NCBI GenBank assembly: GCA_951406725.2
Contig: OX597830.1
Coordinates: 23,498,001 to 23,562,000 of the forward strand
Origin: Octopus vulgaris
Lineage: Eukaryota
Reading direction: 5' to 3'
DNA: 64,000 bases
The notes beneath the pieces are model-generated. The model searched no databases and was not told the DNA's origin. It saw nothing but the letters and a program-made list of their open reading frames with translations. How positions within the stretch are numbered: the first letter of the stretch is position 1; each line of letters begins with the position of its first letter. The position numbers and the translations under genes are program-made. This document shows, one piece after another, positions 372-63,843 of the stretch.

Positions 372-1510
372 TGGATACTAAAGCTCGTGGAAAATCACGA
401 GAGACGAAAGAAGCTTCATTGTATCATAAAGAAAAGCAAAAGATTTGCTATTGATCTCGTGCAGGATACCCAAACTGAACAACCCGAGGGAAGTACGGCA
501 ACTATTGTTGCAAAGAAGGCGAAAATAATGGCAACGAAAAAAGCGCACGAGCAATTGGCTGATAGGTGGGAGGAGAACCTCTGCACGGCAAATATGTGGC
601 CCGTAGCAAACAAGCTGATGTTGACCAGAAGCAAACCCATCAGTGGCTACGGAGCTCAGGGCTAAAAGCAGACAGCGAAGGTTTCATCCTGGCTGCTCAA
701 GATCAAAGCCTATTAACCCGGAACTACCAGGCCAATATGATGAAAAATGGAGCAGTCCCAAAATGCCGATTCTGCAACGACATGATTGAAACAGTGGTCC
801 ACCTAATCTCTGGATGTAAAGTCTTAGCACTAGTGGAGTATAAATTAAGACATGACAGAGTTGGCCAATATCTACACTGGCTAATAAGTCGGCATTACAA
901 TATCGAAACTGCCGACAAGTGGTATAATCACCACCCTGAAGCTGTAACTGAAGGAGAAAATGTAACCATTCTGTGGGACTTTCCAGTACATACAGACCGA
1001 ACCATCAAATCCAATAAACCGGAAATTGTTGTGAAAGACCAAAACAATCAAGTTTGCTTTTTGATCGACATGAGCATCCCATGTGATCATAATATCTCGG
1101 CGAAAGAGTTTGACAAGCTCAGAAAATATAAAGACCTGCCCATTGAAATTGAGAAAATGTGGCATCTCACGGCGGTTACAATACCAGTGATCGTAGGAGC
1201 ACAAGGAATGATCAAGAAGGAAACCAAAAATTATATGAGAATGATCCCTGGCTTACCGTCCCTGCAAGAAGTGCAAAAGATTGTCTTAACTGGTACATCA
1301 CACGTACTGAGAAGAGCATTGTCGATGTGAGAACTATTACTACCCATGTATTTTAATTTAACTCTAAAAAAAAAAAAAAAAAATGAACGAACTAGTGAGT
1401 TTAGTTTAATGGCCTACCAATGTATACTATGTGTTTCTTTGCCCTAGGAGTCGGGAAGACACTCGGCAAGAAATGGAAGCAAATTTGAAAGAAGAAGAAA
1501 AAAAAGATAA
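372..1510 (+). mobile_element. 5'-truncated R4/Dong-clade retrotransposon: CCHC knuckle + restriction-like endonuclease, one frameshift, 3'UTR
   Basis: AAQDQSLLTRNY, CRFC..ETVVHLISGC (CCHC), RHDRV, ILWDF, NKPEIV..LIDMSIP..KLRKYKDL (PD-(D/E)xK-type RLE). Frameshift near 570. Starts right after (TAA)n and ends in TAA repeats. Confidence 0.92.
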
Positions 1511-11520: not shown

Positions 11521-11748
11521 TTCTTTATTGCCCACAAGGGGCTAAACATAGAGGGGACAAACAAGGACAGAAAAAGGGATTAAGGTGATTACATCGACCC
11601 CAGTGCGTATCTGGTACTTTTTTTATCGACCCCGAAAGGATGAAAGGCAAAGTCGACCTCGGCGGAATTTGAACTCAGAACGTAGCGAGAGACGAAATAC
11701 TGCTGAGCATTTCGCCCGGCGTGCTAACGATCCTGCCAGCTCGCCGAC
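11521..11748 (-). mobile_element. tRNA-derived SINE family B
   Basis: Minus strand: ggcgagctggcaggatcgttagcacgccgggcgaaatgc...gagttcaaattccgccgaggtcgac (A/B-box-like). About 8 copies in the window. Confidence 0.85.
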
Positions 11749-22638: not shown

Positions 22639-24982
22639 TCTATATATATAAAACTGAGAATGTGTGTGTGTGTGTGTCTGTCTGTCTGTCTGTGTAATTC
22701 CCTAAAACTTGAGAACTACTCAACCAATTTCATTCAAATTTTACACATGCTTTACATAGGGTCTAGGGAGTGTCATGGGCAAAAAAATTTCTAACTTCTT
22801 GCCTAGGGCAAGCCCACAGCAATATCATATCTTCTCCACTATTTTAGTATTACGTGTTAAAAATTACGTGTTAAAAATCTTTAACTTTTTGCCTAAGGCG
22901 AGCCCACATCAATATCATATCTTCTCCACTATGAATCCCTAAAACTTGAGAACTACACAACCAATTTCATTCAAATTTTACACATGCCTTACTTAGGGTC
23001 CATTTAGTGTCATGGGCGAAAAAATTTCTAACTTCTTGCCTAGGGCGAGCCCACAGCAATATCATATCTTCTCCACTATTTTAGTATTACGTGTTAAAAG
23101 TGAAACAAAACCATCTCTCTATTGTAATGTCACATACTTTCACTTTAATACTGAAACTATTAAAGTCAAACTATTATATAAGAGGGATGAACCATTAACA
23201 GTGGACATCCACTTTGCTAGAAGATCCGCTTTGGTCTTATATGCTACACCACTGGTTTTCAATTCATATTAATCAAATTAATATTCAATTTCTAACCCTT
23301 ATTATTTTAAATTTAAATTTAAACCCAGGACAATGTGTTTTGGAACGGAGTTTGCTACCACACAGCCACACCTGCACCTATGTATGTGTGTGTATGTGTG
23401 CATAGCAGTATATTTATATATTTATTTCTATACATATTGATGTATATGTATGTGTAGATGTATATATATATGGATGTACATGTAATATGTATACATATAT
23501 ATTCACATATATATACATGCATACATATATACACCCATACACACATACACGCACACACATACACAATCGACTAAGTGGTTCGCCAAACGAGATCGATAAA
23601 ATGGCTTAGCGGTCGCGAAACGAGATCGATAAAAGGAATTAGCGTTTCGCCAAACTAGATCGATAAAATGACTTAGAGGTTCGACAAACGATCGATTAAA
23701 TGACTAGCGGTTCGACAAAAATGATCGACTTGGCGGTTCATCAAACGAGATCGAAAAAATGACATAGCCGTTCGACAAACGAGATAGATAAAATGACTTA
23801 GCGTTTCGCCAAACATGATTGATAAAATGACTTTGCGTTTCGCCAACCGTGATCGATAAAATATCTTAGCTCTGCGCCAAACGAGATCGATAAAATGACT
23901 TAGCGGTTCGCCAAACGAAATCGATAAAATGCTTTAGCGTTTCGCCAAACGAGATCGATAAAATGCCTTAGCGGTTCGCCAAACATAATCGATAAAATGA
24001 CTTAGCGGTTCGCCAAACGAAATCGATAAAATGCCTTAGCGTTTCGCCAAACGAGATCGATAAAATGCCTTAGCGGTTCGCCAAACATGATCGATAAAAT
24101 GACTTAGCGTTTCGCCAACCATTTTCGAAAAAATGACATAGCAATTCGCCAAACGAGGTCGATAAAGTGACTTAGCGGTTCGCAAATAAGATCGATAAAT
24201 TGACTTAGCGTTTCGCCAAACGTGTTCGATAAAATGGCATAGCGGTTCTCCAAACGAGATCGATAAAACGAGTTAGCGTTTCGCCAAACGAGATCGATAA
24301 AATGCCTTAGCGGTTCGCCAAACATGATCGATAAAAGGACTTAGCGTTTCGCCAACTATTTTCGATAAAATGACATAGCGATTCACCAAACGAGGTCGAT
24401 AAAGTGACCTAGCGGTTCGCAAACAAGATCGATAAATTGACTTAGTGTTTCGCCAAACGTGTTCGATAAAATGGTGTAGCTGTTCGACAAACGAGATCGA
24501 TAAAATGACGTAGCGGTTCGACAAACTAGATCGATAAAATGACCTAGCTGTTCGCCAAACTGGATCGATAAAATGCCTTAGCGGTTCTCCAAACGAGATC
24601 GATAAAATGACTTAGCGTTTCGCTAAACAAAAAACGATAAAATGACAGCCTTTTGCCAACCGATAAAATAACTAGCGGTTCGACAAAGAAGATCGATGAA
24701 ATGACTTAGCGGTTCGCCAAATGAGATCGATAAAATGACTTAGCGTTTCGGCAAACTTGATCGATAAAATGACGTAGCGGTTCGTCAAACGAGATCGATA
24801 AAATTACTTAGCAGCTCGCCAAACGAGTTCGATAAAATGTTCTAGCGTTTCGCCAAACGAGATCGATAAACTGACTTAGCGGTTCGCTAAACAAGTTATT
24901 CCAGTTCATTAGAGAAAACATAACAGAAAAGTCTAATTCTTCAATTGCATGTAACACCGGCGACGCCGGGTATCTCTGCTAG
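22639..24982 (+). mobile_element. Non-autonomous Helitron (5' and 3' ends) with internal duplication, insertions and satellite array
   Basis: A|TCtatatatataaaactg 5' end; ~160-bp direct repeat (22699/22936); 3' hairpin ccggc-gac-gccgg then CTAG|T at 24979-24983. Continuity of the two ends is inferred. Confidence 0.6.
23570..24895. repeat. 34-bp tandem satellite, ~39 copies
   Basis: Consensus GCGGTTCGCCAAACGAGATCGATAAAATGACTTA; contiguous units without spacers; 7-unit (237-bp) higher-order duplication at 24041 and 24278. Confidence 0.95.
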
Positions 24983-25190: not shown

Positions 25191-25828
25191 GACAGAAGAA
25201 ACATACATACATGCATATATGCATGTGTTCGTGAGAGACTGCGTATATATGCACATGTAGCTGGGTGAGAGGTTCTTGGAACCTCTAAACTACAAGTCGT
25301 TAAGTTATCAGAGACCAATGTTTTCTCTGTAGCCAAGTCACTTCGTCCACACTGATGAAAAGCAAAGTTGTAAAAGTATATCTCCTAAATCTCTCTGTCT
25401 CTGTCTGTCTGTCTGTCTCTCTCTTTCTCTTACTCTATCTCTCTCTCTCTCTCTCGCTCGCTCGCTCTTATCGGTCGTGTCATTGTTTGCTCCGCAGTGA
25501 AAGATTGTTTTTGTGCTGAAAATTGTGAAAATTTGCTGTTTTGGTCGTCAGACCACTTCTTTTCTGCTGTTGCAGCAGAGTTTTGCTGTTCTCCCCCCCC
25601 CCCCACCCCGTTTCAAGGGAGAAGCGGCAAAAAACATGAATTTGCCACCAATTTCTTCCGAGTCCGAGGAAAACTTTGAAAATTTGTTTGAAGGCATGAA
25701 GGCGAATATGTGGGAGGAGAAAGGTAAAATTATAGAGGCGTCTCACGCGCTTGTTACAAAAGCAGACGACAAGATGTCTAGCGAGGCTAAACAAGAGGAA
25801 AAATCAAAAATAAATTTTGCGCCGATAT

Positions 25829-26346
25829 AGGCAGTGGCTCTCGTGGCTTCTGATCTTAACTGATTGGAAGTGTTGTCATGAACATTGTTTTAAACGATGG
25901 GCTACAGTAAATATTCTGCTCAATACCACAGGATTTGCTTGTCAGTTGTTTGATCTTAACCAGTTGAGCATGTCCCTTAGTGGCTGACGATATGTGCATC
26001 TCTGATCATGAGCAGAAATAGTGGGGGAGCATCATAGCCACGTGTTGAGAGGGATTCTTTGGGGTTTGAATAATTCATCTCTGGAAACATGGGTGTTTCG
26101 TTCTATACCCATACTCAGGGACCTTTTGAGCAGGATGGGCTACTCGACCAGAAGAAAATTCTAACTGGGCCCCACCTGCAAGGTCATGCGCTGTTTATCT
26201 TGATATGAGATCACCATGTCGCGCACATATGGTTTTGATGCATGTGCCTGGTGTACCCTTATCAGACGGGTAGTCATGATGAGTATACTGGGCTTCGTAT
26301 ATGTTACCCCAGTGTCACTTTGATGGCATGCACTGGTCTCTCACTC
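25829..26346 (+). mobile_element. ~555-bp non-coding TAA-associated element, copy 1 (5'-truncated)
   Basis: Homologous to 59841-60374 and 62551-63104; ends ctctcactc then (CAA)n(TAA)n. Confidence 0.85.
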
Positions 26347-26479: not shown

Positions 26480-27220
26480 TAAATGATAAAAAATATAGTC
26501 AAGAAGATTCCCCGAATGGGGTCCAAGGATATTGGATGAAGAAGTTGAGAGGACTCCATGAAAGGGTAGCACAACAGCTAGATGAGTGCTTGCAGGATGG
26601 CGCAGTACCCAGCTGGATGACAAAGGGTAAGACATTGTTATGTGCCAAAGATGCTTAAAAGGAAAATGTTGCACCCAGCTTTAGACCAATAATATGCCTT
26701 CCGCTAAAGTGGAAACTAATGTCAGGTGCTCTGGCCGGTGAACTGTTCAGATACTTGGAAAAAAGTGAACTGCTACCCACTGAACAGAAAGGGTGCTGAA
26801 AAAGGAGCTGGGGGAACGAAGGATCAGCTCTTAATTGGTAATCTAATTATCAGGAACTGCAAGAGAAGACATACAAACCTGAGCATGGCATGGATTGACT
26901 ATCGCAAAGCATGCGATATGACACTACACTCCTGGATAATAAGAACAGTAGAAATGTGTGGAGTAGCAGAAAATATGAGAAACCTTATATGGAATAGCAT
27001 GAAATACTGGAGAACGGAATTGATAGCAAGAAAGCAAGTACTAGGAGAGATGAAAATCAAGAGAAGCATCTTCCAGGGGAACAGTGTGACCACACTAATA
27101 TTCGTGCTGGGATTGATCCTCTTCAGTGAAATACTATAGAAAACAGGAGTATGATCTGGGAAGAGATTAGGGGAGAAACTAAACTGCTTACTATACATGA
27201 ACGACCTGAAGCTAAATGAT
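26480..27220 (+). mobile_element. R4/Dong-clade reverse transcriptase fragment (pseudogene)
   Basis: [75 protein letters not shown] (RT domains 0-5); stops and frameshifts; follows (TAA)n. Confidence 0.9.
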
Positions 27221-27229
27221 AAATAATAT

Positions 27230-27868
27230 GCTGGAACTTATTGCATCGATCGCGAAAGGATGAAAGGCAAAGTTGGCTCCGCCGGAATTTTAACTCAGAA
27301 CATAAAGACGGAAGAAATGTCGATAGGTATTTTGCCCAGCTTACGACGCTAACGACTCTGCCACCTCGTCGCCCACACACACACACACACTCTCTCTCTC
27401 ACACAGGCACACACACGCGCGCGCACACACACACGCATATACTCATTTCTACTCTAGACACGAGACCCCAAATTTTGGGGGAGGGAGCCAGTCGATTAGT
27501 ACTGGTACGAAACTAGTACTTAATTTATCGTCACCGAAAGGATGAAAGGCCAAGTCGAACTCGGCGGAATTTGAACTCAGAACGTAAAGACCTATTTCTT
27601 TACTACCCACAATGGACTAAATACAGACGAAATACCTATTTCTTTACTACCCACAAGGGACTAAATACAGAAGGGATAAACAAAGACAGGCAAACGGATT
27701 AAGTCAATTACATCGACTCCAGTGCGTAACCGGTACTTAATTTATCGACCCCGAAAGGATGAAAGGTAAAGTCGACCTCGGCGGAATTTGAACACAGAAC
27801 GTAACGGCAGACGAAATACCGCAAAGCATTTCGCCCGGCGTGCTAACGCTTCTGACAGATCGTCGCCT
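27230..27868 (-). mobile_element. Cluster of SINE family B copies
   Basis: Three overlapping or nested family B segments (ggcggaatttgaactcagaacgta on +). Confidence 0.8.
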
Positions 27869-27979
27869 TCACACACGTATATATTAATCTCAAAACTCAA
27901 TATGTTACCATGTTTTAAACTACGATATTTTAGAAGTTAAATGTATTCTTATGAACGCTTAAGCACCACATCATACATT

Positions 27980-34745: not shown

Positions 34746-35017
34746 ACCCCTTAACTTTTGTACAAATAAGCAAATATTTTGCATACCGATTTATGTAAAG
34801 GAACAAGCATTTTCTGGCTTCGCTCAAGACCTTCTGAGTTTCCGCCAATAAGGGGGCCAGACCAGGTCGAAACTCTGTGTCTGGTAGTCGACCGGCGTTC
34901 TTACGAAAGCCTATTGTTTTTAACACTCAAGTCTCACTCACGAGATTCTCTGGGACAAAATATAAAAGCTTCAGCTCTTGCAATTTTCTATACAGATTTT
35001 AAGTGTTACATTCGCCG

Positions 35018-35250
35018 GCGAGATGGCAGAAGCGTTAGCACGCCAGGCGAAATGCTTAGCGGTATTTCATCTGCCGCTACATTCTGAGTTGAAATTCCGC
35101 CGAGGTCGACTTTGCCTTTCATCCTTTCGGGGTCGATAAAGTAAGTACCAGTTACGCACCAGGTTCGATGAAATCGACTTAATCCGTTTGTCTGCCCTTG
35201 TTTGTCCTCTCTGTGTTTAGCCCTTGTGGGTAGTAAAGAAATAGGTATTC
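35018..35250 (+). mobile_element. SINE family B, full length
   Basis: ggcgagatggcagaagcgttagcacgcc head; tail ...gtagtaaagaaataggta. Confidence 0.85.
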
Positions 35251-42296: not shown

Positions 42297-42770
42297 GCTT
42301 TCTACTCTAGGCACAAGGCTCGAAATTTTGGGGGAGGGAACCAGTCGATTAGATCGACCTCAGTACGCAACTGGTACTTAATTCATCGACCCTGAAATGA
42401 TGAAAGGCTAAGTCAACCTCGGCGGAATTTGAACTGAGAACGTAGCGGCAGACGAAGTACCTCTAAGCATTTCGCCCGGCGTACCAACGACTCTGTAGAG
42501 GCACATGGCTTAGTGGTTAGAACAGAGGACTCGAGGTCGAGGGATCGCGGGTTCGAATCTCAGACCGGGAGATGTGTGTGTTTATGAGCGAAACACCAAA
42601 GTTCCACGCGACTCCGGCAGAAGGTAATGGCGAACTTCTGCTGACACTTTCGCCAAAACTTTCTCTCACTCTTTCCTCCTGCATCTTGCAGCTCACCTGC
42701 GACGGACCTTATGAGCCTGGCATGGTTCAAGAAGGAACAAACTAACGAATCTGTCGCTCACCGTCTTGAT
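42297..42770. mobile_element. SINE family B (-) interrupted by SINE family C (+, 42495-42740)
   Basis: Family B head is split around the insertion (aacgactctgt / aacgaatctgt, TSD-like). Confidence 0.75.
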
Positions 42771-56520: not shown

Positions 56521-57650
56521 TATATATATAATATATTGTGTTTTTCTAGATATTTTGATTTATTACATTTACTCCTGTCTTTTCCATCCAGTTTATGCTT
56601 ATCGTATACGCGGCTCCTACAACAAGTCGTAAAACGCACACCTTCTCTAGTGACATCAGTCTTTTTACCTCCCAAGTCAAATCATATCACATCTACTTCA
56701 TTTCTCTTTCCTATACTCTCTTATCATCAAGACATACCATGTCTATGTTCTAACCGGTTTTTTCTTTCATTGTTCACAACTACCACCATGTCCGGCTTTC
56801 GATATTCAATTTCACCATCCTGTTAAACCATTGTTTATCTTTATTGTGGTTGGTGGAGAGAACATGCTGAGATCATCCTACCGGGAATGGAATATGGGCA
56901 ATACCATACATATATATACTTACTGTATGTATAAATGTCTGCATGTTATAAAATACAATGTATATTATATCACACAATATAATACTAAAAAAAAATGTAG
57001 AGAAACCTGCTTGAATACCAACATACCAACGTTTCACGTACGTACGTACCTACTTACCTACCTACCTACATGATACATACATACATACATACATACATAC
57101 ATGCATACATACATACATACATACATACATACATACATACATACATACACACAGAGCTACCAACTGACACTGAAGAGGTTTTGTTTCTGTTTTAGAAATA
57201 GTATCCATCGGTGAAAAAATTAACAAATAAAAGCCGAAAAATCATTCTTGACGAAAGTAACAACTTTGTTACGTTTTCTTGAGGCAAATATATGTTAAAC
57301 AAATCTAGTGCAAGACAAAACAAAATAGTGAATTTATTCTGTACAAAATACTTAAAGGAAGAACTGTATCAACTGGAACAATTATAAGAGATTACCATGA
57401 AGCAAAGACGGCCAACAAGAATAGATTTTGCAGAAGGCATGAAAAAGAATTCAAGTGACCTTTGAATTTAGTTTGGGAGAAGAGAAAAATAACTCGAGAG
57501 TTCTCAGAATGTAGAAATTGTCTTAACAAGAAAATAATGCAACGAAGTTTTTTTATAGAGTTTATTATAGGAAGACAAAAGACGGAATATTTTCATGTAT
57601 TAGTGAATTAGTGTGTTAGTATGTATGCATGTATGTATGTGTGTGTGTCT

Positions 57651-58323: not shown

Positions 58324-59135
<812 letters not shown>

Positions 59136-59363
59136 ATACTACTACTACTACGCTGCTCTCTCATTCAATGATAATAATATTCGGGTGAAGGCCTAAGTCG
59201 ATTACATCGACCTCTGTGATCACTTACTACTTATTTTTTATCGATCTCGAAAGGGTGAAAAGCAAAGTCGACTTAGGCGGAATTTGAACTCAGAACATGA
59301 AGACGGACGATATACCGAAAAGCATTTCGCTCGGAGTGCTAATGATTCTGCCAGCTCGCCGCC

Positions 59364-59490
<127 letters not shown>

Positions 59491-59776: not shown

Positions 59777-59840
<64 letters not shown>

Positions 59841-60374
59841 GCCCTGATGCAGCACCAGTTAGTGGCTCTCGTGGCTTCTGATCTTAACTTATCATGTACA
59901 TTGTTTTAAAAGATGGGCTACAGTAAATATTCTGCTCAATACCACAGATTTACTTGTCAGTTGTTTGACCTTAACCAGTTGGGCATGTCCCTTAGTGGCT
60001 GACGATAAGTGCATCTTTGATCATGAGCAGAAGTAGTGGGGGGAGCATCATAGCTGTGTGTCGAGAGGGATTCTTTTGGGGTTTGAATAATTCACCTCTG
60101 GAAACATGGGTGTTTCGTTCAACATCCTTAAACAATCCTTATTCAGGGACCTTTTGAGCAGGATGGGTTACTCGACCAGAAGAAAATTCTAACTAGGCCC
60201 CACCTGCAAAGCCATGTGCAGTTTATCTTGATATGAGATCACCATGTCGCGCACATATGGTTATGATGCATGTGCCTGGTGTACCCTTATCAGATGGGTA
60301 GTCATGATGGGTATACTGGGCTTCGTATATATTACCCCAGTGTAAATTTGCTAGCATGTACTGCTCTCTCACTC
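59841..60374 (+). mobile_element. ~555-bp non-coding TAA-associated element, copy 2
   Basis: (TAA)n|GCCCTGATGCAG...CTCTCTCACTC|aat; small internal deletions. Confidence 0.9.
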
Positions 60375-60829: not shown

Positions 60830-61330
60830 TCGAAGATGTGTTACGGGTAAATCTGAGAAGGAGCAATAGAGAATGACAAGAAACAATGAAGCAGTATGAT
60901 CGTGAAATTGAATATCGAAAGCCGGATATGGTTGTTGCTGTGGATAAAGAGGGAAAAGCCAGTTTGACATCAGATATTTCATGCCCCGATGATTACAAAG
61001 TATAGGAAAGAGATGTAGTGAAACAGATGTGTTATGATGATTTGAAGTGGGAGATAAAAAGACAGAGGCCATTCAGGGAGATGGGTGTTATACCTGTTGC
61101 TGTTGGAGCCCAGGATACGATAAGTACCAGGATCACAAACTGGTCTCAAAAGATAGAGGTAAATGTAAAGATGGAGCACCTTCAGTAGACAGTGTTGTAT
61201 GGAAAAAAAACACGGAGCATCCGTAGGGTTCTCGAAATCTGAACGGAAAAGTGTATTTCGTTGGTCCTCTGGTTTTGGACATCTGGCACTTTGTTACATT
61301 TCTCACCGAAGCTTCTGTAGTGTCGCCTTA
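60830..61330 (+). mobile_element. R4/Dong RLE fragment + 3'UTR (third subfamily)
   Basis: DREIEYRKPDMVV..YDDLKWEIK..VIPVAVGA..MEHLQ*TVLYG..SIRRVLEI*. Confidence 0.75.
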
Positions 61331-61394
61331 GCACCACCACCACCACCACCACCACCACCACCACTAACAACAACAACAACAACAATAATAATGA

Positions 61395-62288
61395 AAACAA
61401 GAAAGCATCATACTCAGTAACAAAACAGGCAAAGTAATATCTAAGTGAATTCCAAATACAACAAATTCCAGAATTAGACGTACTGGAAACAAGCACAGAA
61501 AAAGCTAAGCGTATGAAAACCCGTGCAAAAACTGCTGCCTTAGATATTCTGATTGATAAATGGCAAGAAGACCATCTCAATGGCAAATACCCAAAGAGAA
61601 GTAACAGTGCCGATATTAACAAAGCCCTTACCCATCAATGGCTAGTATCTTCTGGCTTAAAATAAGAAACAGAAAGGTTTATCATAGTAGCCCAAAATCA
61701 ATGTCTACCTGCAAGGAGCTCCCTGGTCAACATATTAAAGAACGGCAGTAGCCCAACATGTCGTGATGTCAACAACAAAATGAAACCATTATTCATGCTG
61801 TTTCCATGTACAGTCTTCTTGCGCCTACAGAGTATCTCAACAGGCATGATAGAGCAACACAATATATTCACTGGGTAATTTGCAAAAAGCTGGACCTGTC
61901 CAATTGTAAAAAAAAAACTGGTAGGAATACAAACCACCTCCAGTGCTTGAAAATGATCACATCTCACTCCTCTGGAACATCACCATTCAAACTGACAGAA
62001 AGATAGATGCGAATAGGCCAGACATTATATTGAAAGACTTCAGACAAAAATCATTCCACCTCATTGATATATGACTGTCCCAATTGACATAAATGCATCT
62101 GTGAAGACCTACCAAAAACTGAGCAAATATAAAGACCTTCAAATAGAAATTGGCAAAATGTGGAACCTCAAGACTAAAACAATACCTGTTGTCATAGGTG
62201 CCCTAGGAATGATAGCAAAAGGGATTGATTCCTACCTAGCTCAGATACCAGGAGACCCCAAAATGGCAGAAATTCAAAAGATAGTGCT
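61395..62288 (+). mobile_element. R4/Dong C-terminal fragment
   Basis: LNGKYPKR..THQWL.SSGLK*ETE..EYLNRHDR..TDRKIDANRPDII..KLSKYKDLQIEIGKMW..IQKIVL. Confidence 0.9.
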
Positions 62289-62416
62289 CGGCGGAATTTG
62301 AACTCAGAGTATAAAGACGGACGATATAGCAGTCAAGCATTTCGCACGGCATGCTCGCCGCTTTAATAAGAACAACAGCAACGACAATAACAAAAATAAT
62401 AATGATGATGATGATG

Positions 62417-62453
<37 letters not shown>

Positions 62454-62473
62454 TGATGATGATGATAATAATG

Positions 62474-62534
<61 letters not shown>

Positions 62535-62550
62535 TAATAATAATAATAAT

Positions 62551-63104
62551 GCCCTGATGCAGTACCAGGCAGTGGCTCTCATGGCTTCTGATCTTAACTG
62601 ATTGGAAGTGTTATCATGTACATTGTTTTGTCTTGGTATAAAAGATGGGTTACAGCAAATATTCTGCTCAATACCACAGATTTGCTTGTCAGTTGTTTGA
62701 CCTTAGCCAGTTGAGCATGTCCCTTAGTGGCTGACGATATGTGCATCTCTGATCACGAGCAGAAGTAGTGGGGGAGCATCATAGCCATGTGTTGAGAGGG
62801 ATTCTTTGGGGTTTGAATAGTTCACCTCTGGAAACATGGGTGGTTCTTTCAACATCCTTAAACAACCCTTATTCAGGGACCATTTGAGCGGGATGGGTTA
62901 CTCAACCTGAAGAAAATTCTAACTGGGCCCCACCTGCAAGGTCATGTGCTGTTTATCTTGATATGAGATCACCATGTCGCGCACATATGGTTGTGATGCA
63001 TGTGCCTGGTGTAACTTTATCAGACGGGTAGTCATGATGGGTATATTGGGCTTCGTATATTTTACCCCAGTGTCACTTTGATGGCATGAACTGCTCTCTC
63101 ACTC
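62551..63104 (+). mobile_element. ~555-bp non-coding TAA-associated element, copy 3 (apparently full length)
   Basis: Precisely embedded in (TAA)n on both sides; same 5' and 3' ends as copy 2. Confidence 0.92.
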
Positions 63105-63209
<105 letters not shown>

Positions 63210-63694: not shown

Positions 63695-63832
63695 TTCACT
63701 GGTGCTTAATCTGTCGACGCTGAAAGGATGGAAGGCAAAGTCGACTGGAATTTGAACTCAGGACATTAGGATGGAGGAATGCCACTTAACCATTTCGCCC
63801 GGCGTACTAACAGGTCAGCCAGCCCGCCGCCT
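63695..63832 (-). mobile_element. SINE family B
   Basis: Reverse-complement family B head; other copies at 59170-59364 and 62288-62362. Confidence 0.75.
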
Positions 63833-63843
63833 TAAAAGTAGCT

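Follow-up and report, generated by a model that had tools for sequence, protein, structure and literature searches.

A 556-bp non-coding repeat of (TAA)n tracts in an octopus genome, a probable passenger of Dong (R4-clade) retrotransposons

Closest described systems

EhLINE1 of Entamoeba histolytica belongs to the R4 clade. Its non-autonomous companion EhSINE1 is about 500-600 bp long, with no ORF and, in the available part of the published account, no identified small-RNA precursor (PMC2996970), and the partner LINE is described as carrying a restriction-like endonuclease (PMC3118788). The element reported here shares these features, with Dong as the likely partner. EhSINE1 is reported to show a T-rich preference and no specific target, to produce target duplications, to number about 400 copies and to have a named partner (PMC2996970). 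The present element was found strictly in (TAA)n, its copies are estimated at about 55,000, and none of the Dong tails compared with it gave a match that would name its partner.

The R2 SIDEs of Drosophila are likewise non-autonomous passengers of a site-specific LINE with a restriction-like endonuclease and show 5' template jumps; they are reported to be built from the LINE's own 5' ribozyme and 3' end (PMC3414825), whereas the ends of the element matched none of the three intact Dong families. Dong itself is the lineage reported to target TAA (PMC3812793), and it resembles the element in target, junction phase, 5' repeats and truncation pattern. The element differs from Dong in having no ORF, and the HDV-like ribozyme by which silkworm Dong is reported to free its 5' end from a TAA co-transcript (PMC3774820) could not be fitted to it. 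Canonical SINEs, including octopus OR1, are described as short, modular, non-autonomous and of high copy number (PMC3531059, PMC4824008), as the element is; unlike them, the element has a sequence-specific target, and no tRNA, 7SL or 5S head or Pol III boxes were found in it.

In the available text of Kojima, only RTE, Ingi, Vingi and R2 are named as LINE sources of bipartite non-autonomous elements (PMC5786205). The curated octopus annotation counts 51 Dong-R4 families and 1,279 unclassified SINE families, none of them described in the accessible portion of the paper (PMC13282606), so the element is probably present in repeat libraries, unlabelled. No description of a Dong-dependent or TAA-targeted SINE was found in the literature searched, a scope outside which subscription journals, Repbase and Dfam lay. 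LINEs with a restriction-like endonuclease are regarded as selective for the RNA they copy, and few passengers of theirs are known, all of low copy number. A 556-nt RNA at such a scale, together with intact helper proteins in one genome, would offer a natural minimal template for testing Dong recognition, and the same system bears on how a sequence-specific LINE works in trans.

Structure, abundance and target of the element

The window (the whole 64-kb stretch of DNA that was analysed) was rich in simple repeats and decayed mobile elements. Self-comparison of the window gave three copies of the element, all on the plus strand (25829-26346, 59839-60374 and 62549-63104) with 88.8-89.8% pairwise identity, and no further copies. 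The earlier note, made from the letters of the window alone, had described a repeat of about 555 bp in three copies with no convincing ORF, no TIRs and no clear tRNA head, and this description was borne out. ARAGORN reported 0 tRNAs in the window, stop-free stretches were short, and translated comparison of the element with the Dong A, B and C proteins gave no coding remnant (best E 0.11). The family length was 556 bp, from ATGCCC at 62549 to a fixed 3' end at CACTC followed by AAT. The 5' end was placed at 62549 because the head-to-tail repeats of the 5' end begin at ATGCCC; this supported the defined 5' end that had been proposed and moved it two bases to the left of the AAT junction at which it had been drawn.

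The full-length young copy (62549..63104, +) was 98-100% identical to the best 40 genomic matches and lay between an upstream (TAA/TGA)n target tract (62364..62548, +) and a downstream (TAA)n target tract (63105..63179, +). Its build was composite. The head (element 1-100; 62549..62648, +) had no tRNA, 5S, Rfam, HDV or hammerhead match. The middle block (element 101-271; 62649..62819, +) agreed at 164 of 171 nt with the inner part of a 492-bp MITE, and for the second body block (element 272-455; 62820..63003, +) no other donor was found among the 24 best-supported loose ends. The predicted 20-pair hairpin with a GGGTA loop (63004..63051, +), a candidate signal for the Dong protein, followed. 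The second full-length copy (59839..60374, +) was older (89%), with deletions of 12 nt and 10 nt. The copies had been said to end in TAA/CAA repeats; the end at CACTC and AAT was indeed fixed, and on the 3' side of the copy at 59839 the AAT was followed by (ACT)n. The third copy (25829..26346, +) began at element position 19 and had no TAA on its 5' side. The sequence directly 5' of this third copy (25441-25828) was unique, with a short open frame, and had no match in the other loci fetched.

No TIRs, LTRs or fixed target duplication were found in the element, which sets it apart from MITEs; the fixed 3' end, 5' truncations and simple-repeat end, together with the lack of TIR and LTR, are those of a non-LTR retroposon. 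At 556 bp it was within the SINEBase size limit (<700 bp) and was non-coding, dispersed and of high copy number; the head of tRNA, 7SL or 5S origin that SINEBase asks of a SINE was not found in it. Judged by its sequence features, the element appears to behave like a SINE without the head of one, and does not appear to be a SIDE of any of the three Dong families seen.

The genome searched comprised 2.8 Gb in 227 contigs. The search gave 3,047 first-look candidates, and the 40 that were scored were 98-100% identical over nearly full length. Because top matches are biased, 61 fixed-position stretches of 10 kb (610 kb in all) were also drawn. These held 12 insertions, which corresponds to about 55,000 genomic copies (95% range 28,000-96,000), and the sampled copies were 79-98% identical to the consensus. 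Exact-motif counts, in which each end pattern leaves out one letter at its last place, gave 5,664 intact 5' ends and 11,421 intact 3' ends genome-wide. Near-identical sequence was also present in sequencing runs of five coded organism labels. No transcript of the element was observed; the RNA data were metatranscriptome contigs with small shares, which show neither transcription nor its start.

Only 10 of the 556 positions changed in the source sequence over the time in which copies decayed to 79-85%. Such constancy would suit a single functional host gene for a non-coding RNA, driven by an external promoter and retrocopied on a large scale, a reading that is rated very improbable given that the element had no Rfam match and no telomerase template and that, among the nine 3' ends followed by a letter other than A, none was full-length with unique flanks on both sides. 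A stand-alone source gene was not among these nine, in a search that would miss a gene whose 3' flank starts in A or one lying in an assembly gap.

At the 30 top loci, all copies stopped at the same 3' base, followed by AAT repeats, and 29 had a TAA-type tract directly 5' (one with a short interruption); the remaining one carried head-to-tail repeats of its own 5' end, then TAA. The flanks were enriched for TAA, as the proposal of a TAA-targeted element had required: by hand count, 91 of the first 100 listed of the 5,664 5' junctions had sense-strand TAA, 6 had head-to-tail duplications of element pieces, 1 had an opposite-strand tract and 2 were other, and among the first 100 listed of the 11,421 3' junctions 89 read exactly AATAATA and 10 were near variants. 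TAA-rich 24-mers made up 0.46% of random positions in the sampled DNA. The TAA on the 5' side counts as evidence of a target because a tail cannot explain it. When 56 full copies were checked, a long target duplication was plausible in one of 35 informative cases. The reading that the element is instead carried by a LINE with an apurinic endonuclease (RTE or Tx1), and has a TAA tail and a mere preference for TAA tracts, has in its favour that RTE is given as the largest LINE class in the octopus annotation (PMC13282606) and that RTE elements are reported as linked to microsatellites (PMC2887409). It is nevertheless very improbable, as the TAA target was strict, two-sided and strand-specific, long target duplications were lacking and the element was nested and fused with Dong.

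Copies truncated at the 5' side retained the 3' end, and 77 of 179 matches ended at position 556. In 20 distinct loci, picked from another 30 for non-TAA letters just upstream, no longer sequence was common to the upstream sides, which consisted of duplicated element pieces or unrelated DNA; no Dong frame abutted the element and no copy extended 5' into a coding ORF. A long 3'UTR or a longer parent was rejected on this ground, the upstream sequence not being common to loci. Four older copies started at element position 18-19. Two short copies started at base 459, the foot of the hairpin (L001:3136-3233, just past the window end, and L074:9115-9213); as no others of this kind occurred among the many truncation points, the idea that they form a 98-nt family of their own, beginning at the hairpin base, was rejected.

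Dong elements and their probable relation to the element

The window held six Dong fragments. A 5'-truncated copy of Dong family A (378..1327, +) was 89-93% identical to intact A, and a decayed reverse-transcriptase fragment (26515..27247, +) lay just after the tract of the third element copy. Two decayed C-terminal fragments were found at 58431..58986 (+) and 60892..61239 (+), the latter of a distant subgroup, and a decayed fragment of family B type (61393..62295, +) had 73-88% amino-acid identity to intact B. One fragment was on the minus strand (56597..56746, E 1.7e-6). The earlier note had placed the element on the same strand as every Dong fragment; all three copies were on the plus strand, together with five of the Dong fragments, and the minus-strand fragment was the exception.

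Genome-wide, Dong A, B and C had intact frames of 1,225-1,316 codons in near-identical copies, with proteins 43-47% identical to each other, and the family A protein matched R2 structures (E 4e-27). By layout and target, the neighbouring LINEs were of Dong/R4 type: a single ORF, a reverse transcriptase with a C-terminal restriction-like endonuclease, and a TAA target. Each of the three families had its own purine-rich 5' end. The D-type families looked old, with no long frames among 150 matches. The 5'UTR of Dong A was about 1.5 kb long with a tandem duplication of about 430-450 bp (loci L170-L172 and L061-L066), and Dong A and B had short motifs in common at the very 5' end, which might be a promoter or ribozyme core. 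In full-length copies of Dong B and C (L161, L166 and L169) the first 21-25 nt were repeated 5-10 times head to tail, and the G/A letters between units varied.

Mobilisation of the element by Dong is likely. The element had the same target and junctions as Dong, its 3' phase was that of Dong B, C and D, and head-to-tail repeats of the first 20-25 nt, as in the element, were seen in 3 of 12 full-length Dong loci (B and C). Only nine genomic 3' ends matched the motif without a following A; three of them ran straight into Dong coding sequence that was 5'-truncated, and one ran into a truncated element copy. The direct Dong fusions would fit template jumps, for which R2 provides a reported precedent (PMC3414825), and Dong insertion with target deletion could also give them. 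Dong lay near 16 of the 30 top loci (15 on the same strand, 1 opposite, 14 with none) and near three of 8 random loci (3, 0 and 5, respectively). This same-strand neighbourhood is not independent evidence because both use one strand-specific target.

Taken with the junctions, these features make it quite probable that the element is a non-coding passenger retroposon copied by the Dong reverse transcriptase/endonuclease. The Dong protein would nick the (TTA)n strand, bind the 3' hairpin, prime reverse transcription at the CACTC end and, at the RNA's 5' end, sometimes jump template before joining. The proposal of a SINE-like RNA mobilised by Dong held in so far as the element was non-autonomous, TAA-targeted, without a tRNA head and not a long 3'UTR; for the Dong-derived tail that formed part of the proposal, a modest motif match was found.

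Save for separate insertions in flanking tracts, the element showed no similarity to Dong A, B or C, whether at their 5' ends or in their bodies; the 5' end of a SIDE would be expected to match that of its partner. Since no copy examined ran into a LINE ORF and no sequence was common with Dong A, B or C, the element is not a long 3'UTR, nor did it arise by deletion from these families. A SIDE-like derivative that arose through internal deletion in a Dong family now extinct or unsampled, with the 5' end and the 3' tail kept, would also leave Dong-like insertion marks and a hairpin resembling that of the old D/H/I subgroup, and full-length 5' ends were seen for only three families, against the 51 reported in the octopus annotation (PMC13282606). 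It is considered quite unlikely in view of the dissimilarity to Dong A, B and C, the lack of a coding remnant, the lack of a longer upstream sequence common to the 20 loci and the lack of an alternative continuation among the best loose ends.

The predicted hairpin, which has 20 pairs and spans element positions 456-503 (53-100 nt from the 3' end), was the only clearly structured region, with z of -4.5 in a window chosen around the hairpin and -2.3 in a fixed 100-nt window, other windows being above -1.8. Both common subfamily changes in the hairpin kept pairing as G-U. The hairpin that had been quoted as the best-preserved form was a composite, each window copy having at least one change, and it equalled the older family consensus. 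A long-range pairing of the 5' end with positions 455-475 was dropped, as it occurred in one fold of a window copy and was absent from the consensus fold.

Comparison of the tail with 21 Dong UTR clusters (303 sequences) gave no significant sequence match, apart from one nested insertion. The hairpins of the old Dong D/H/I subgroup had the layout CC-x-W-A, four bases, RC, an NGGTA loop and GT. A motif from the D/H/I UTRs matched 18 element copies and 10 Dong UTRs, with no further match in about 1.4 Mb of loci; it had been picked with the element already in view, and the young consensus does not fit it. A weight matrix of the hairpin reached only about 1e-4 per position for the core and gave nothing for the full 46 columns, and a covariance model built on 11 hairpins of Dong D/H/I detected none of the three copies in the window at E<=5. 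For the likeness of the loop to that of the Dong 3'UTR, as put forward in the earlier note, there was a modest motif match to D/H/I, which did not extend to a significant UTR match or to the covariance model. From the hairpin layout, a common origin of the element tail and the Dong D/H/I hairpin is plausible. As the D-type looks old and the element has copies at 99%, its partner today would need to be one of A, B and C or else a family not seen here.

The 5' head, the making of the RNA and the middle block

Rfam gave no match to the element at E<=10. A tRNA head or Rfam family was rejected, the early matches being CA-rich noise. A 5S-derived head, noticed by eye, was unsupported against the genome's own 5S, with alignment p of 0.01-0.99 depending on the scheme, higher scores for other windows of the element and nothing from nhmmer. 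No B box with <=2 mismatches was found near the head, and the element had three T4 runs, kept in the old and the young consensus, and no T5 run. The element might be an ordinary Pol III SINE, still carried by Dong, whose tRNA or 5S head has diverged beyond recognition. Its purine start, the lack of an added G, the length below 700 nt and the absence of a T5 run agree with this, and by eye a stretch at 25-36, 7-8 nt after the position-18/19 start of four copies, resembles the A-box consensus; the lack of a B box, the three T4 runs and the negative ARAGORN, Rfam and 5S results weigh against it and leave it unlikely.

Hammerhead and HDV-like descriptors did not fit the element; the HDV-like descriptor is a weak test because it also missed the three Dong 5' ends. 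By hand count, a G stood next to the 5' end in 1 of 100 listed element junctions versus 83 of 100 Dong C junctions. This difference was read as capped Dong RNA and uncapped element RNA, and the junctions thus hint that the element RNA is uncapped; the extra G of Dong C may be templated or untemplated rather than cap-derived.

For the Dong passenger, the making of this uncapped RNA would be the weakest step. It would most likely be cut, by some ribozyme or nuclease, from longer read-through transcripts between TAA and AUG, a route held with somewhat less than even confidence. Synthesis by Pol III from an atypical internal promoter is possible at a lower level of confidence, and some other route at a slightly lower one still. 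The fixed 5' end, with no known promoter or ribozyme, poses a sharp and cheap question. A new passenger class, in which a promoter-less, microsatellite-targeted RNA releases its precise 5' end from host transcripts by an undescribed self-cleaving fold, mimics the Dong tail in structure (not in sequence) and is inserted by Dong in (TAA)n, is distinctly unlikely; if true, no parasite of a sequence-specific LINE known so far would have been more successful, its copies numbering in the tens of thousands.

When public contigs were aligned with the element, loose ends recurred at 62649 and 62819 (26-126 contigs in each of two runs). They were traced to a 492-bp MITE. It has long inverted repeats and CACTG...CAGTG ends, and its TAA/TTA duplication was identical in 9 of 16 copies with both ends. 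Thirty MITE copies (loci L211-L240) averaged 91% identity to their consensus. The MITE interior and element 101-271 were 96% identical (the 164 of 171 nt given above), and 3 nt separated the end of this block from the right inverted repeat. At two of the element's CpG sites the decayed form was fixed among the MITE copies (28 of 30 at each site), and this speaks for the MITE having captured a copy of the element. On this comparison, the middle 171 nt were probably acquired by a TWA-targeting MITE from an element copy that had decayed; the direction of capture is likely and not certain, because the ages overlap. The MER6 MITE is reported to carry a V-SINE domain (PMC6887750) and is alike in build, as a MITE with a SINE middle block; unlike MER6, donor and MITE here coexist in one genome at 96% identity. 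That the middle third of the element is common to a MITE is new here, and the capture would be a young, same-genome case of a DNA transposon taking a SINE middle block. Another common repeat adjoined a MITE copy (L075:7250-7640, minus strand).

Other repeats were also seen. A second, unrelated short repeat occurred in the window at 11521-11746, 27631-27884, 35016-35249, 42343-42495, 59194-59364 and 63698-63834. It was very common in the window and the loci, often ended at and often started after a TAA run, and is possibly another TAA-associated passenger. Near-perfect 5S rRNA sequences followed by non-terminator sequence were found at dispersed sites (L243 and L250) and are candidate 5S-derived SINEs. 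A tandem array of units of about 34 bp occupied 23565-24895 of the window.
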